Origin: a virus
Length of the DNA stretch: 64,000 nt
Reading direction: 5' to 3' (one strand)
IMG/VR virus record: IMGVR_UViG_3300036781_000275
Location: 1-64,000 of that record
Shown here one piece after another: positions 35,269-41,124 of this stretch. Each line of letters starts with the position of its first letter. Positions within the stretch are counted from its first letter, which is position 1. Below the pieces are notes generated by a model. The model made no database searches. It saw only the letters and a list, made by a program, of their open reading frames with translations, and was not told the origin of the DNA. The translations under genes and the position numbers were made by a program.

Positions 35269-35751
35269 TTAGATGCGTTTCGCGCAGACTGGCCCGATGC
35301 CAGCCGCGACCGATTTCGCATCCTTCAGGAGCGCGCCGCAAACACAGCAGACTCCGTACTGGATCCCGAATGCTTTCGCCTGCTCCAGTGTCACGCGTTC
35401 CGTCGCGGTGAGCCGATAGATCGCGCCGGCCGCATAGCGGAATTCCCACTGCACGGTTTCGCCGTTCTCGGTGAGGCGGTCGCCGCCGATCGCGACGAGT
35501 TCCTTCGCGTAAAGGTTGCCGCTTTCCTTCGAGCGCTGGACCTTGAAAAGTCGCGCGTCCGCCGTGCGGTAAATGCCCGGCTCGGTCACTGGATCCGGCG
35601 CGGCTGGCGGAAGCGTCGCGAGTAAGCGCTCAATGATCGCGCTCGCATCGCGTTTCGTGAGCGGCTCGGCGGCCGTCACGGTGCCGCGTCCCTGTGCGAC
35701 GAGTTTCCCGATGAAAGCGCGCTGGTTCGTGGTGGCGAGTTCGAATGTCAT
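35269..35751 (-). CDS. DUF6011-like Zn-binding protein
   Basis: C-terminal CCVCG..L.D..SV..GIGPVCA. Confidence 0.7.
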   Translation of the reverse strand: MTFELATTNQRAFIGKLVAQGRGTVTAAEPLTKRDASAIIERLLATLPPAAPDPVTEPGIYRTADARLFKVQRSKESGNLYAKELVAIGGDRLTENGETVQWEFRYAAGAIYRLTATERVTLEQAKAFGIQYGVCCVCGALLKDAKSVAAGIGPVCAKRI

Positions 35752-35851
35752 GGCCCTTTGTCTCCGCGTTGGAAGATGATTTGTTTAGCCCTGCCCGATG
35801 CCTCAAGCCTAACGGGTGTTAGGTCGGTGTCAAGTGCCGTTGCGTGCTCGT

Positions 35852-36127
35852 TCAGTCTTGCGCGATTGCGCCCGGCGTATCTTGCGGGAATTCCACGGCG
35901 GTCGTCTCATCGATGCCGGCCGCGTTGAGCATATCCAGCGCGCGCCCCGCGTTCGCATTCTCGCATGCGCGCATGAGCCGGCGGCACAGTTTGCGCGTCG
36001 CCTTGTCCACGGTCGTGTCGATGGCGATCTCGCCGAAAAATGAACCGCAATCGTCGATCTCTTCCGCCGCGAGAAAAAGCCGCTGAAGTAGCGCGCTAAT
36101 GCGTTCCTGCGCCGTTGCCGTTGCCAT
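35852..36127 (-). CDS. hypothetical acidic early protein
   Basis: sole gene between two operator-promoter cassettes. Confidence 0.6.
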   Translation of the reverse strand: MATATAQERISALLQRLFLAAEEIDDCGSFFGEIAIDTTVDKATRKLCRRLMRACENANAGRALDMLNAAGIDETTAVEFPQDTPGAIAQD

Positions 36128-36132
36128 GGTCG

Positions 36133-36238
36133 TTGTCTCCGCATTGGAAGAGTGTTGGCCCTGCCCGATGAGGTAAAGCTAACAGGTGTTAGATGCCTGT
36201 CAAGGGCTTACGCAAAACCTTCATTTTCACACAGTTAG
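36133..36238 (-). repeat. promoter cassette repeat, copy 2
   Basis: TTGACA, operator 36179-36192, CATCGGGCAGGGC, CTTCCAATGCGGAGAC. Confidence 0.85.
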
Positions 36239-36243
36239 CCCCG

Positions 36244-36825
36244 CTACTCGCGCTCGCGCCGGCGGTAGGCCATTTCCTGCCTCACCATCCGGTCAGGCAA
36301 TCGGAGACCGCGCGCCTGTGCGACCGCACGTAGCTGCCGCTCCAGCGCCGGCATGACGATCGCGTTCGCGGCGTTGCGCACGCGTTTGTACACGTGGGCG
36401 TTTGGGATCCGCTGATCTTTCGTCATCCACTCTGGCCGCCACCGCTTGTTGCCGATGTGCATCGAGAGCGCCGCCGCCGCGGACACCGAGCGCCGCTTAC
36501 CGGCCTCGCAATGCACCACGAGTCGCTTGGCGCGTCGATGCTGGAACGCGAACCGTGCGATCTCGTTCGCATCGATCACGCTGCACGCGTCGTCATGCTC
36601 GCCGTCGATGTCATCGAACTTCAGCCGCAACAGGTCGTGCCAGCCCTCGCAGAGCACTGGATCCGGCGCGCTCTTCGAGACGATCGAAATGATCACGTGA
36701 TCTGCGCCCGGAATGAAGGTGCGCGCCTCGACCAGACCGCACGTGACGATCTCGGGGAACGGACGCGGCGCGTCCAAGAATTGTTGCAGCGCATGCGCGG
36801 CGTTCACGGCGTCTTTTTTGTTCAT
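36244..36825 (-). CDS. protein-tyrosine/dual-specificity phosphatase
   Basis: LRLKFDDI and VHCEAGKRRS (HCX5R) motifs. Confidence 0.8.
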   Translation of the reverse strand: MNKKDAVNAAHALQQFLDAPRPFPEIVTCGLVEARTFIPGADHVIISIVSKSAPDPVLCEGWHDLLRLKFDDIDGEHDDACSVIDANEIARFAFQHRRAKRLVVHCEAGKRRSVSAAAALSMHIGNKRWRPEWMTKDQRIPNAHVYKRVRNAANAIVMPALERQLRAVAQARGLRLPDRMVRQEMAYRRRERE

Positions 36826-37331
36826 AGCTCGAACGGGAGAAACGGTTGAGTTTTCGACACGTATAGCGGGTGTCGCGGGTTGCCGCTCTTCGTGAGTCCC
36901 AAACAGTGCACGGCGCGATTCGCGTGGCCGTCGCGGATCAGCGCGCTGACCGCGCGGTGTCGATCCTTGAACGTGCCGAGATCGCCCCACGCGACGACGG
37001 TAATTGCCTGCTCGTTGTGAATGAACCGGAGCAAGTTGTCGTCATTCGCCGGCCCCACGGGATCGGGGTGGCCGTGCAAATACGTCGGGTCCGTCGAGCG
37101 CAGCGCGAACAGGTTGAGCATGACGAGTCGCCGGCATTGCTCGCGAATCGCGAAGCCGACACACCGCCTGATCGTCGGATCGTCGACGTGGCCGTCCGCG
37201 GTGGACGGATTGAATCCGATCACGACGAGTGTTGGGCCGGGCGCAAGGCGCAGATCGCGCCAGAGCTGATACCGATACCGCTTGCACGGCGACAGGAGCG
37301 CGCCGCTCCCGAAATACATGGACGGTTTCAC
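36822..37331 (-). CDS. DUF1643 family protein
   Basis: YRYQLWR, NPSTAD...DDPTIRRC, NLFALRSTDP, AWG, G.PRHPLY. Confidence 0.85.
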   Translation of the reverse strand: MKPSMYFGSGALLSPCKRYRYQLWRDLRLAPGPTLVVIGFNPSTADGHVDDPTIRRCVGFAIREQCRRLVMLNLFALRSTDPTYLHGHPDPVGPANDDNLLRFIHNEQAITVVAWGDLGTFKDRHRAVSALIRDGHANRAVHCLGLTKSGNPRHPLYVSKTQPFLPFEL

Positions 37332-37771
37332 CGGGGCCGCGGCTCGCGCGTCGCGTTGAGATGATCCCTGACCAACGTATCGGGAATGTCGAAGAGCCCT
37401 TGCCTGCCCTTGTACGGGATCGGGTGCGTGAGCAACACGAAATGCGAGAACATCCACGCCCACCGATCGTCGTCGTAGTTGCCGAGTAACAGCTCGGTTG
37501 GGCTCAAGCTATCACGGATCGTTTCGACGCGAACGCAACCGTCGAGCTGCGCCAACGCGACGATCGCCCCCAGTGGCACCGTGTGTATGGTGAGCGGCGC
37601 GAGCAACTTCGCGATTTCTGGCCGTTCCGCGAACGCTCGCTCCTCGCGCTGGAATCGTTGCGCAGCGTGAATCGCAATGGCCCCGCGGTGCCGGGTGGAC
37701 CAGTGCCGGGTCTCGTTGCGTTTGATCCCGATCAACGATGCCCACGGTTGCCAGAGCGAGATCGCTTTCAT
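37328..37771 (-). CDS. ASCH domain protein
   Basis: MKAISLWQPWASLI, K.NETRHW.T.HRG.IAIHA, P.P.KG.QGLF. Confidence 0.85.
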   Translation of the reverse strand: MKAISLWQPWASLIGIKRNETRHWSTRHRGAIAIHAAQRFQREERAFAERPEIAKLLAPLTIHTVPLGAIVALAQLDGCVRVETIRDSLSPTELLLGNYDDDRWAWMFSHFVLLTHPIPYKGRQGLFDIPDTLVRDHLNATREPRPR

Positions 37772-38384: not shown

Positions 38385-38690
38385 TCACTCGTCGTCTCCG
38401 TCGAGTACCACGTGGAAAATCGCCGTGTAGCACGCATCGCAGTGAAACGCGCCTCGATCTTTCTTTTTCTTCCCACAGATCACGCACCGGCCGCGGCGCA
38501 GATATTTGAGCGCGAGCGTGCGTGATCTGTTTTGCGGCGCATCGACCGGTAGCATCGCCTCGTCCTTGAGCAGCTCCGGCATGGAACGCTGAAGGATCCC
38601 GCCATGGTTCGCGCCTTCGCACGCGCAGTGGCAGCGCTGACCCGTCGCGGCCTCGCAGCGCGCTGCCCAGCCCTTCGAGCATTCAGCCAC
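38385..38690 (-). CDS. Cys-rich Zn-binding protein
   Basis: C..A....CHCACEGANHG and CVICG...CDAC. Confidence 0.55.
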   Translation of the reverse strand: MAECSKGWAARCEAATGQRCHCACEGANHGGILQRSMPELLKDEAMLPVDAPQNRSRTLALKYLRRGRCVICGKKKKDRGAFHCDACYTAIFHVVLDGDDE

Positions 38691-39060
38691 CGGCCGTGCG
38701 GCCGATCCCCACGGCGCGCGCCTTGCGGATCGGTACGCGCTTTTTCTTCGTGGCGCGTTTGCCCGTGGCGGCCGTCGTCTCCGGGTCGGCCTCACGAATC
38801 ACGTAACAGCGGGTCTGCTCGTCGATCGATTCGGCGCGCGCGTACGTACCGTCATCGTGCTTGACCATGATCGCGTAGCCGCGCTTTTGCATGTCCTTCA
38901 GCATCTTGAGCGCGCGCTCAACGTCGACCTCGTTCTCGTCGCTGAACGTGACCTCGATGTCGCCCTCGCCCGTATTGAGCACGGACAGCATGCCCGTGAT
39001 GCCGGCGGGCAACGGTTCGCTGAGATCTTCGGCGCTGTCTACGATCATGCTCGCGGTCAT
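38683..39060 (-). CDS. small protein with C-terminal Gly-Gly (possible ubiquitin-like modifier)
   Basis: 125 aa; LSVLNTGEGD, GYAI, ends VGIGRTAGG-stop. Confidence 0.5.
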   Translation of the reverse strand: MTASMIVDSAEDLSEPLPAGITGMLSVLNTGEGDIEVTFSDENEVDVERALKMLKDMQKRGYAIMVKHDDGTYARAESIDEQTRCYVIREADPETTAATGKRATKKKRVPIRKARAVGIGRTAGG

Positions 39061-39091
39061 TGCATCGCTCCGGTTAAATCGGGAATCGCGC

Positions 39092-39799
39092 TCACAAGCC
39101 GCTCTCCGCGGTGTCGAGCGCGTGCTGGTTCGCCTTGCGCCAGAACATGGCCTCATCGCCCCGCATCAGCAACAGATGCGCGATCACGTCGTCAGTCGGC
39201 GTCATCGAGCCGACGAACGTTTTGTCGTAAAACCCGATCGGGTGCAAACAGAGCGCGCAGAGCGGATACGTGTGCTCGCCGCGGTCCTTCAGGGCGAGCG
39301 TCGGCCGGCCTTTTCGGAACACGTAGCTCACCCCGGAGCGCTTGCTCGTCTCGACGAACATGCCGAGCAGCATGAACTGCGTGAACTGTCGGTCCGTGAC
39401 GTGATTCGCGAGCAGCTTGAGCGCGAGCGCCTCGGCTTGCATGTCGAACACCATGGACGCCGCACCCATCGAATTCACCATGAGCGCGATGCGCATCATG
39501 ACCGGATCCCGTGACGACTTCATGGCGCGGCGCTTCCCGGTCGCGGCCGATTCGAGGACCATCACGCACTGCCCGGTCGAGCGCGTCACCCACGAGTTGA
39601 TCACGTGGAACCGTTCCTCCTGATCGTCCTCGGGACGCTCCGGTTTGTCGAACATGTGCTCTAGCCGGTCCTTGTCGGGATAACCGGGAGCAACGGTGAG
39701 CGGAAACTCGGTGGTGGGCATCGGACACCCAGCCCATTCGCCGCGCTCGCGCATCAGGCGCGCCAGTGCGCGGCGTACCTCATCCCACGTGACGCTCAT
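39092..39799 (-). CDS. hypothetical protein with LCLHP motif, partner of the GG protein
   Basis: A..LL..HVT..Q, SKRSGVSY, LCALCLHP, PTDDVIAHLLL...DE..FW.KAN. Confidence 0.5.
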   Translation of the reverse strand: MSVTWDEVRRALARLMRERGEWAGCPMPTTEFPLTVAPGYPDKDRLEHMFDKPERPEDDQEERFHVINSWVTRSTGQCVMVLESAATGKRRAMKSSRDPVMMRIALMVNSMGAASMVFDMQAEALALKLLANHVTDRQFTQFMLLGMFVETSKRSGVSYVFRKGRPTLALKDRGEHTYPLCALCLHPIGFYDKTFVGSMTPTDDVIAHLLLMRGDEAMFWRKANQHALDTAESGL

Positions 39800-39983: not shown

Positions 39984-40724
39984 TCACAGGAGCTGCCCGC
40001 CCATGTATTTCTGGATCATCGCATGATGCGTCACCCCGTCGAGCAGCGCCTTGTCATGGGCGCGCGCGTCGGGCCAGCCGCCCAGTTGCTTCAGATCGAA
40101 CTTCGTGCCCGTGTCGCGGCACTCATCGCGCAGCCGGCGCGCCCACGCGAGATCCATGGGGCGCGGATCGTGACCGCTCTCGCCGCCCGTGATGACCAAC
40201 GAGATCGGGTTGCCTCGCTCGTCGGCCCGGAGTGCCGTGTACAGGGACAGCGGCCCCAAGAGCGGCTCCGCCGAAATGAACCGGCCGCCGATGCTGGGAA
40301 TCTGGTTCAGCAAATCCGCGCGATGCGCGAACCGTTGATTCTCCACGCTCACTCCGAGCACCACGTTCGGCCAGCCTTGACCCCACGATTTCGGCGCGCA
40401 CTCTGGCCAGCGCTCGATTCGCTTCGTGAGGATCATGTACGTGTGTGGCGTGTCCGCGATGATCTCCCACGCCTCATCGCGCCACGCGTCGGCCGCGGGA
40501 TGCAGGAAGTCGCTCATCGAGCACGTAAACACGATGAGCGGCTCTTTCCATTTGCGCGGATCCGCAAACGTGGTCTTCGAGCGCGTCACGGTATCGAAGT
40601 CCTGACCGAACCGTTTCATTTCGCGCTCAGCGTAGCAATGAGCGCAGCCAGCGCTCACCTTGTTGCACCCTCTCCACGGATTCCAGCTCGCTTCCGTCCA
40701 ACCGATACCGGTATGCTTACCCAC
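39984..40724 (-). CDS. phage Gp37/Gp68 (DUF5131, radical-SAM-like) protein
   Basis: IGWT..SWNPWRGC.KVSAGCAHCYA, SMSDFLH, LTKR, SAEPLLG, GGESG. Confidence 0.9.
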   Translation of the reverse strand: MGKHTGIGWTEASWNPWRGCNKVSAGCAHCYAEREMKRFGQDFDTVTRSKTTFADPRKWKEPLIVFTCSMSDFLHPAADAWRDEAWEIIADTPHTYMILTKRIERWPECAPKSWGQGWPNVVLGVSVENQRFAHRADLLNQIPSIGGRFISAEPLLGPLSLYTALRADERGNPISLVITGGESGHDPRPMDLAWARRLRDECRDTGTKFDLKQLGGWPDARAHDKALLDGVTHHAMIQKYMGGQLL

Positions 40725-41124
40725 GCGGTGCCTCCAGCGCGACGCTGGCATTGAGTAATGGACACACCTCCGCATGCGCGAGAATCGCGCGCAGCGTCGC
40801 CACACTTACCTCTTCGTTACCGATCTGCACGTACGGTTCTCTCGGCTCTCGTTCGTCCGCTTTCCCCGTGTGGCACGAGAAAAATTCATCATCCGGCGTC
40901 AGATGCTGATGGTCGATCTCGATTAGCGGGCGATTGTGTTCCTTACCCATGGCGATTGCGCTCCCGTTTACGCGCGCGCTTTTCTCGGGCGCGCTCCAGC
41001 GCCGCGCGATCACCGTCGTTGCGCGGCGTTTTTGGTTTGTACTCGGGCGTCGGCTTCGACGGATCCGGCCGGCCGAGCGGCGTGACGCCGGGATGCACGT
41101 ACCGCTTCTGCGGTTGACGTCGCC

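Follow-up and report, generated by a model that had tools for sequence, protein, structure and literature searches.

In positions 1 to 64,000 of the virus record IMGVR_UViG_3300036781_000275 (hereafter designated the window), two adjacent genes encode an obligate two-protein module, that is, a small protein whose chain ends in Gly-Gly and a partner protein with an invariant Cys-x-His-Pro site around its residue Cys184. Tentatively, we read the pair as a ubiquitin-style tail combined with a cysteine enzyme that would act on the terminal glycine of the tail at Cys184 after activation by the host. The record is 73,323 bp long, of which the window covers the first 64 kb, and it is a complete tailed-phage genome because it carries direct terminal repeats. 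A preceding reading of the DNA letters without database searches (hereafter, the sequence-only reading) had drawn attention to both genes, and their translations on the minus strand bore out the lengths, the terminus and the motifs described there, as follows.

38683..39060, minus strand: gene for the small Gly-Gly-tailed protein (125 residues plus stop), ending ...RAVGIGRTAGG-stop.
39092..39799, minus strand: gene for the partner (235 residues plus stop), carrying LCALCLHP and PTDDVIAHLLLMRGDEAMFWRKANQH.

The ATG codons of both genes are preceded by Shine-Dalgarno-like motifs, and the guanine-plus-cytosine (GC) content at third codon positions is 0.80–0.82 in both, as in the adjoining phage genes.

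The linkage of the two genes was analyzed at 199 loci with partner relatives (69 viral, 50 from genomes and 80 from metagenomes), using six-frame searches of the DNA around the partner genes; since some of the metagenome loci are the same contigs as viral loci, protein counts are given below for distinct sequences. An initial word-based search had returned 6 relatives of the small protein against 1073 of the partner, and the apparent lack of linkage was overturned by the six-frame searches, which placed the small gene beside the partner gene on the same strand at 175 of the 199 loci. Indeed, wherever a full-length partner gene was flanked by at least 500 nucleotides on each side, the small gene adjoined it on the same strand (132 of 132 loci). 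The 24 loci without a small gene consisted of 14 contig ends and 10 truncated partner remnants, and free-standing partner genes were thus rejected as a class of their own. Among the 175 pairs, the small gene lies upstream in 166 and downstream, as in the window, in 9. The interval from the stop codon of the small gene to the start of the partner gene is 4 nucleotides or less in 56 of 144 distinct upstream pairs; other intergenic distances are unreliable because the start codons could not be fixed.

Moreover, no conserved third gene accompanies the pair, either among 33 genes of the window tested at 77 related loci or in an all-against-all clustering of the flanking open reading frames (ORFs). 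Only the two genes of the pair recurred among those 33 (at 73 and 74 of the 77 loci), followed by DUF5131 at 18, an ASCH-like gene at 5 and DUF1643 at 4. Likewise, the pair genes were found at 70 and 69 of 72 non-redundant viral loci, where the next real neighbor, DUF5131, was present in about a quarter; a third cluster of flanking ORFs was rejected as a conserved neighbor, having been inflated by ORFs in alternative frames. These results show that the two genes are linked as a unit, which we take to be an obligate two-protein module, and bear out the recurrence of the pair in phage genomes that the sequence-only reading had mentioned.

The small protein belongs to a family of 783 representative clusters at E ≤ 1e-3, as found when 1.84 billion representatives of an independent library were searched by profile. 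Its Gly-Gly terminus, on whose conservation the sequence-only reading depended, is directly followed by the stop codon in 150 of 160 distinct proteins from the loci and in 148 of the 150 best representatives of the 783. The last three residues of the 150 distinct tails are AGG (143), SGG (6) or GGG (1); ahead of the two glycines, present in all 150, Ala occupies position –3 in 143, Ser or Thr position –4 in 139, and Arg (125) or Pro (23) position –5, giving the consensus A-[VTI]-A-V-[AG]-[RP]-[ST]-A-G-G. The codons for the terminal glycines vary (GGC, GGA, GGG and GGT), and the Gly-Gly end is kept in both gene orders, so that the constraint acts on the protein. For the same reasons, a role of these codons as a ribosome-binding (Shine-Dalgarno) signal for the downstream gene was rejected, the end being kept also where the small gene is itself the downstream one.

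Further residues beyond the Gly-Gly end were found in 4 of the 160 locus proteins, namely 9–20 residues at loci L059, L096 and L121 and an in-frame fusion at L195 (2501–3145 region), in which the Gly-Gly is followed directly by the first Met of the partner; they were also found in 2 of the 150 representatives (10 residues in P0188 and 23 in P0246). Four other locus proteins have deleted or shifted ends. To be equivalent to the common form, the variants with post-Gly-Gly residues would need trimming after the Gly-Gly. Two independent extensions open with the same YDPNL, which probably reflects read-through into the partner gene, whose start region is conserved.

The small protein is divided into three parts, an alpha/beta domain of about 65 residues, a variable linker and a conserved 17-residue end, located in the window as follows.

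38791..38997, minus strand: N-terminal alpha/beta domain (residues 22–90), with an LN-G-GD hairpin, a DM..RGY helix end and Tyr86 (alignment A3); predicted local distance difference test (pLDDT) score of 70–78 over residues 40–90 in the AlphaFold2 (AF2) model.
38737..38790, minus strand: variable linker (residues 91–108 here), 7–94 residues long in 141 relatives, with a median of 35.
38686..38736, minus strand: conserved C-terminal 17 residues (109–125), comprising a strand and the tail (...A-V-x-[VI]-[AG]-[RP]-[ST]-A-G-G), the last six codons being 38686–38703.

In the 69-sequence alignment A3, the invariant residues are Gly33, Gly61, Tyr86, Gly124 and Gly125. The first half of the linker is acidic (mean charge, –3.4) and the second half basic (mean, +3.7); an AT-hook-like RGRP core occurs in the linker of 34 of 150 distinct proteins, and the Pfam family AT_hook matched 5 of 69 members. 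This core and the charge pattern hint at a contact of the linker with DNA. Separately, the small proteins of loci L022, L025 and L032 carry an N-terminal Cys-rich extension (CxC...CxxC, zinc-ribbon-like) ahead of the conserved domain.

Relatives of the partner number at least 1073 at E ≤ 1e-3, and no name beyond "hypothetical" is attached to them. Relatives are only about 35–45% identical to the partner of the window, and nine residues are the same in all 132 distinct sequences (Ser152, Thr167, Cys184, His186, Pro187, Asp203, Arg213, Glu216 and Trp220); Glu150, Ser155, Tyr159 and Arg162 are each changed once, and His208 is kept in 128. In the LCALCLHP segment, to which the sequence-only reading had drawn attention, only the second Cys (Cys184) is invariant; among 62 sequences, the first position of LCALC is occupied by Cys in 33 and by Ala in 25. 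The motif kept throughout is thus L-C184-x-H186-P187-[IV], which is not followed by Asn, and a conserved downstream Cys is absent. The AF2 model of the partner is confident (pLDDT, 91.5; predicted template-modeling score, 0.82) and shows a C-terminal domain preceded by a 135-residue N-terminal region with its own invariant W-x-G-x-P loop.

39122..39394, minus strand: partner C-terminal domain (residues 136–226), in which one helix and an antiparallel sheet of four strands are followed by the Cys-x-His-Pro loop and two more helices (AF2).
39239..39250, minus strand: codons for the invariant site Cys184-Leu185-His186-Pro187, of which Cys184, His186 and Pro187 are found in 132 of 132 sequences; residues 184–190 belong to the predicted interface.

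Because Cys184 lies two residues ahead of His186, the two side chains would face the same way on a strand. The Cys, the His and an acidic third residue, as a thiol peptidase requires, are all present in 132 of 132 sequences (Cys184, His186, Asp203 and Glu216). Judged from these sequences, Cys184 and His186 could form with Asp203 or Glu216 either a thiol catalytic set or a metal site. A single longer relative was found, P0128 (527 residues), which joins a partner-like part (57% of the query, 49% identity) to pectate-lyase/beta-helix domains (PF13229 and PF12708) and could be a real fusion or a gene-calling artifact.

The interaction of the two proteins was analyzed by complex prediction from our own alignments (48 rows for the partner and 69 for the small protein). 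The complex reached a score of 0.81 (0.77–0.86 in separate runs), in contrast to 0.49 for the best of three controls. In the calibration of the score mark, 58 of 80 solved complexes and 2 of 110 mismatched pairs reach it, a calibration that is only roughly valid here because our own alignments were used. The runs agreed in at least 68% of contacts, with a partner-chain pLDDT of at least 79. On the partner side, the predicted interface comprises residues 184–190 (the Cys-x-His-Pro loop), 197–200, 203–215 and 119–133 and the N-terminal loops 22–27 and 35–40; on the side of the small protein, it comprises residues 26–36 and 53–75 and the tail 115–125, within which residues 115, 117 and 119–125 take part. 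Pro187 and Ile188 are predicted to contact tail residues 119, 120 and 122. The docking of the tail at the partner Cys, which had been put forward as a possibility, thus reappears in the predicted complex. The prediction supports binding of the small protein to the partner with its tail at the Cys-x-His-Pro loop, and it implies binding only.

On our tentative reading, the small protein would fold into a compact alpha/beta domain, with the conserved C-terminal strand packing back across the variable loop, and its last residues (Arg or Pro, Ser or Thr, Ala, Gly and Gly-COOH) would thread into the partner site around Cys184-x-His186, near Asp203 and Glu216. We infer that Cys184 would carry or cleave an acyl bond at Gly125, so that the partner might be a thioester carrier of the type of ubiquitin-conjugating enzymes (E2-like), a Gly-Gly-specific thiol peptidase or isopeptidase, or both. 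No adenylating enzyme is encoded by the pair or elsewhere in the phage, and the host would therefore have to supply the activation, presumably through a MoeB/ThiF-type or another enzyme resembling ubiquitin-activating enzymes (E1-like). Chemistry on the terminal glycine appears to be the most economical reading because of the exact Ala-Gly-Gly-COOH end, the co-inherited partner with invariant polar residues around Cys-x-His, the predicted docking and the occasional forms with post-Gly-Gly residues. A more far-reaching scheme, which we hold to be unlikely, is that phages of many phyla carry a minimal tagging device, in which a Gly-Gly modifier of non-ubiquitin fold would be charged onto Cys184 by a borrowed host E1-like enzyme (MoeB/ThiF) or by the composite site of the pair and, at an early stage of infection, joined to targets of host or phage origin; such a device would be a protein-conjugation system that had evolved, or been pared down, independently of the E1-E2-E3 cascade.

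Several results weigh against a cysteine enzyme acting on a ubiquitin-style tail. A free carboxylate cannot form a thioester without activation, and searches for an activating enzyme were mostly negative. In the whole 73,323-bp phage record, neither ThiF (PF00899) nor Prok-JAB gave a match, while control genomes were positive; the sequence-only reading had recognized no such gene either. Among 50 module-bearing virus records (27 of them at least 90% complete), a ThiF-like match at E ≤ 0.001 was obtained in 2, one of which exceeded the Pfam cut-off, its gene not being adjacent to the pair. A tblastn search with one ThiF-like query matched 1 of the 199 loci, and neither ThiF nor JAB was among the listed families of 258 flanking ORFs (25 of 35 families listed on the upstream side).

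Family and fold comparisons count on the same side. Neither protein gave a usable family match in Pfam, PHROGs, NCBIfam or PADLOC. In VIA-align searches of 48,161 chains, the best row for the partner had Z 4.3 and none reached Z 5, and Foldseek found nothing in the PDB at E ≤ 0.001 for the partner model. Alignment of the partner profile by hhalign with eight Cap2-type Prok-E2_B domains, the sole prokaryotic E2 family compared by profile, gave a probability of 0.2%, and the corresponding value for the small protein against 28 ThiS/MoaD members of PF02597 was 0.3%. The AF2 model of the small protein, built from a 7-sequence alignment, is of low confidence (pLDDT, 59.6) and places one helix ahead of five strands, the final two of which are formed by the conserved C-terminal segment. 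With this poor model, the 50 best VIA-align rows lacked any ubiquitin-like chain and were headed by beta sub-domains from papain-type proteases and by Sm/Pelota folds, at Z values up to 6.1. Foldseek likewise found nothing in the PDB at E ≤ 0.001 for this model. The label of a ubiquitin- or ThiS/MoaD-type modifier that the sequence-only reading had given the small protein is therefore not supported by these comparisons, although its terminal Gly-Gly is ubiquitin-like.

In E2 enzymes, the catalytic Cys lies downstream of a His-Pro-Asn motif, whereas in the partner it precedes the His-Pro, in the order Cys-x-His-Pro-[IV], which also tells against an enzyme of that type. Finally, an apparent swap between the tail and the partner did not hold statistically. 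In the viral set (62 pairs), Pro at tail position –5 coincided with Arg at partner position 39 in 10 of 11 cases versus 5 of 51 otherwise, and the same contrast was 14 of 19 versus 37 of 112 in a larger set (132 pairs). The phylogenetically controlled test was, however, not significant (4 supported pairs; median p, 0.125 and then 0.5), and the swap was dropped as evidence for the contact.

The predicted C-terminal domain of the partner shares with the UBC/RWD fold the order of a helix, four antiparallel strands, a His-Pro directly after strand 4, and two helices, and it differs in being preceded by the extra 135-residue N-terminal region. Weak VIA-align rows for this domain (about residues 112–228) include Ubc9 (4y1l_C; Z 4.2, 83 residues aligned, root-mean-square deviation 3.1), the RWD domains 2yz0 (Z 3.8) and 2daw (Z 3.7), each with 90–91 residues aligned, and Atg10 (3vx7_B; Z 3.3, 91 aligned). 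At these scores, the model weakly suggests a UBC/RWD-like domain, as a resemblance and not a demonstration. An E2-type fold, with which the sequence-only reading had suggested a comparison, is thus not demonstrated for the partner. The Cap2-type E2 domains, taken from 8 genomes, have a His-x7-Cys arrangement with the consensus PHVExDGxLCL; Prok-E2_A was not found in the three genomes tried nor in any control genome, and no Pfam E2 family matched any of 48 partner members at E ≤ 0.1. A peptidase fold was not matched by the partner in Foldseek or VIA-align. In the predicted complex, the sheet of the small protein appears to lie on the first helix after the loop, with the tail running to the loop. 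Ubiquitin sits on the E2 in this manner in the closed state of E2~ubiquitin, a resemblance that we infer from the list of contacts rather than from a superposition.

Short proteins of the ThiS/MoaD family (PF02597) resemble the small protein in having a ready, unprocessed x-Gly-Gly end; 28 matches from one bacterial class end in TGG (20), GGG (7) or AGG (1). They differ in that no ThiF/MoeB, ThiG/ThiH or MoaE partners were seen with the pair, and the low-confidence model of the small protein is, unlike the beta-grasp modifiers, not a beta-grasp, with a 7–94-residue loop ahead of the last strand.

Host systems that activate terminal glycines include Bil, CBASS and Bub (PMC10097602, 10.1101/2023.09.04.556158, PMC10557695 and PMC11601596). 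According to these sources, Bil (BilABCD), type II CBASS (Cap2/Cap3) and Bub resemble the pair in that a glycine-ending protein or enzyme tail is handled by a cysteine enzyme (a serine enzyme in Bub), and also in their setting of phage-bacterium conflict. They are, however, host-encoded, always with an E1 adenylating domain and usually with a JAB or other peptidase, whereas the pair comprises just two genes, located on phages and prophages, for which neither an E1 nor a JAB gene was found. This two-gene unit lacks the operon make-up of Bil, Bub or type II CBASS, and no PADLOC model matched it. By analogy, the pair may work most like these bacterial ubiquitin-type systems, yet without their E1, their peptidase gene or detectable homology to E2 or ubiquitin-like proteins (Ubl), with its Cys at another position and with a viral in place of a host location.

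The main alternative to chemistry on the terminal glycine, which we consider somewhat unlikely, is that the two proteins form an obligate non-covalent heterodimer, in which the tail is a docking peptide in a groove that admits only Gly, Cys184 and His186 are structural or metal-binding, and the role lies in the early DNA-handling phase and is unrelated to tagging. The complex prediction speaks for binding and is silent on chemistry, no E1, JAB or other enzyme partner was found, and a metal site could be made of Cys184, His186, Asp203, Glu216 and His208 (kept in 128 of 132). A variant of this explanation, possible in view of the RGRP core in 34 of 150 linkers and their acidic-then-basic polarity, is a DNA-associated or anti-restriction factor using the charged AT-hook-like linker; methylases, recombinases, helicases, ParB, a Mom-like gene and DUF5131 among the neighbors would suit such a role. 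However, so many invariant polar residues (Cys, His, Asp, Arg, Glu, Ser and Thr) at 35–45% identity look more like an active site, and the chain ends exactly at Gly-Gly in about 94–99% of members, which points to the free carboxylate itself, beyond small side chains.

The ubiquitin-style Gly-Gly end with Arg at –5 would also suit a counter-defense decoy, whose tail would mimic the C-terminus of a host Bil Ubl or a type II CBASS CD-NTase and trap or compete for the E1 or E2, the partner then being a chaperone or a conjugate-stripping enzyme. Host systems activating terminal glycines do exist, and the module is phage-borne, lies amid accessory and anti-restriction-type genes, and has a mosaic distribution. 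We nevertheless regard this explanation as improbable, since the module is spread over at least nine phyla, far wider than any single sporadic defense system, it is not obvious why a decoy should require an invariant partner that is inherited with it and receives the tail in its conserved site, and no PADLOC model matches either protein. Less probable still is a sulfur carrier resembling ThiS/MoaD, in which a host MoeB/ThiF would adenylate and thiocarboxylate the tail and the partner, sometimes together with DUF5131, would use the sulfur for nucleic-acid modification. The terminal x-Gly-Gly is that of real ThiS/MoaD members (the 28 PF02597 matches), and the pair is separated by a single small ORF from an upstream DUF5131 gene, which has a Cx6CxxC motif and relatives at 18 of 77 related loci; in the literature searched, the term DUF5131 occurred only in the RadicalSAM.org resource paper (PMC9477430). 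Yet about three quarters of the loci lack DUF5131, the small protein has no profile similarity to ThiS/MoaD (0.3%), and no linked sulfurtransferase or ThiF was found. We retain, tentatively, the reading of a ubiquitin-style tail that would be handled at Cys184, with some probability assigned to none of these explanations.

Searches with relatives and profiles agreed with the lack of a named family for either protein. Scanned singly against Pfam, 69 relatives of the small protein and 48 of the partner gave nothing usable, and no Pfam family matched more than 1 of the 48 partner members at E ≤ 0.1; the weak matches in the family libraries were DUF3892 (E 0.065), CitMHS (E 0.035) and the AT_hook hits in 5 of 69 members mentioned above. 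Profiles of both families gave nothing below E 0.06 against PDB sequences. A structure search of BFVD returned just an unnamed viral protein (E 1e-4), and the ESM Atlas contained only unnamed, mostly viral clusters for the two proteins. Full-text literature searches, which covered articles without their supplements, did not return a description of the pair. Collectively, the pair defines two large protein families that are unnamed and undescribed.

GenBank phages gave no match at the DNA level; at the protein level, the small protein had none and the partner a single distant one (KX853510). The corresponding locus (L219; KX853510.1, 114442–119717, GenBank phage record Rctr197k) carries a distant version of the pair, in which the partner keeps L-C-V-H, the Asp and the Glu and has lost the Pro and His208, and the small neighbor ends ...IPG, with a single Gly. 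The same record contains a second partner-like paralog 1.2 kb downstream and an annotated CRISPR repeat region about 1.2 kb upstream.

Phages and prophages assigned to at least nine phyla carry the module. Prophage and binned copies were assigned by record titles to Pseudomonadota, Verrucomicrobiota, Planctomycetota, Acidobacteriota, Elusimicrobia, Actinomycetota, Chloroflexota, Armatimonadota, Myxococcota and Clostridia, an assignment that the binning of phage contigs can mislead, although several copies are on contigs of 0.6–2.9 Mb. In bacterial genomes, mostly of Verrucomicrobiota (loci L112, L114, L120 and L124–L128), the partner gene is represented by C-terminal remnants that are truncated or frameshifted and lack a small gene; they are probably decayed prophage copies.

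In the phage genome itself (GC content, 63%), the minus strand carries nearly all genes. Those for the portal, large terminase, major head and head-morphogenesis proteins lie at 8–23 kb and DNA-handling genes at 30–60 kb, the pair being inside the latter block. The genes adjoining or near the pair in the window are as follows.

39984–40805, minus strand: DUF5131 (phage Gp37/Gp68) gene (Pfam E 1e-60; phrog_2045), with a Cx6CxxC motif.
38385–38600, minus strand: short Cys-rich ORF after the small gene, with Pfam C1_2 and DZR_2 (double-zinc-ribbon) matches that are weak and below the cut-off.
37328–37771, minus strand: gene for an ASCH-like phrog_3193 protein, an accessory gene downstream of the pair.
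36822–37463, minus strand: gene for a DUF1643 protein, an accessory gene downstream of the pair.
35269–35751, minus strand: gene for a DUF6011 protein, an accessory gene downstream of the pair.

The DUF5131 gene lies on the upstream side of the pair, from which it is separated by a single 63-codon ORF; elsewhere, a DUF5131 relative sometimes directly adjoins the pair (loci L011, L047, L062 and L063). Of the Cys-rich zinc protein said to follow the pair in the sequence-only reading, the ORF is present, whereas its matches to zinc families remain below threshold. This ORF has a relative at 0 of the 77 related loci and hence lies outside the module. Further downstream (35269–37771, minus strand), the accessory genes are likewise unexplained. 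The longest ORFs of the DUF1643 and ASCH-like genes share 136 nucleotides; because of this overlap, the start of the DUF1643 gene is probably further in. Across loci, the Pfam tally of the 258 flanking ORFs is mosaic and includes DNA methylases, recombinases and helicases as well as ParB, RusA, DUF5131 and a single Mom-like gene.

Read modestly, the pair still defines two large unnamed families, with 783 clusters for the small protein and at least 1073 relatives for the partner. If the terminal glycine is indeed where the pair acts chemically, no smaller ubiquitin-style system would be known; being encoded by a virus and not by its host, the pair would then bear on the origin of protein tagging and on the answers of phages to the recently found ubiquitin-like defenses.

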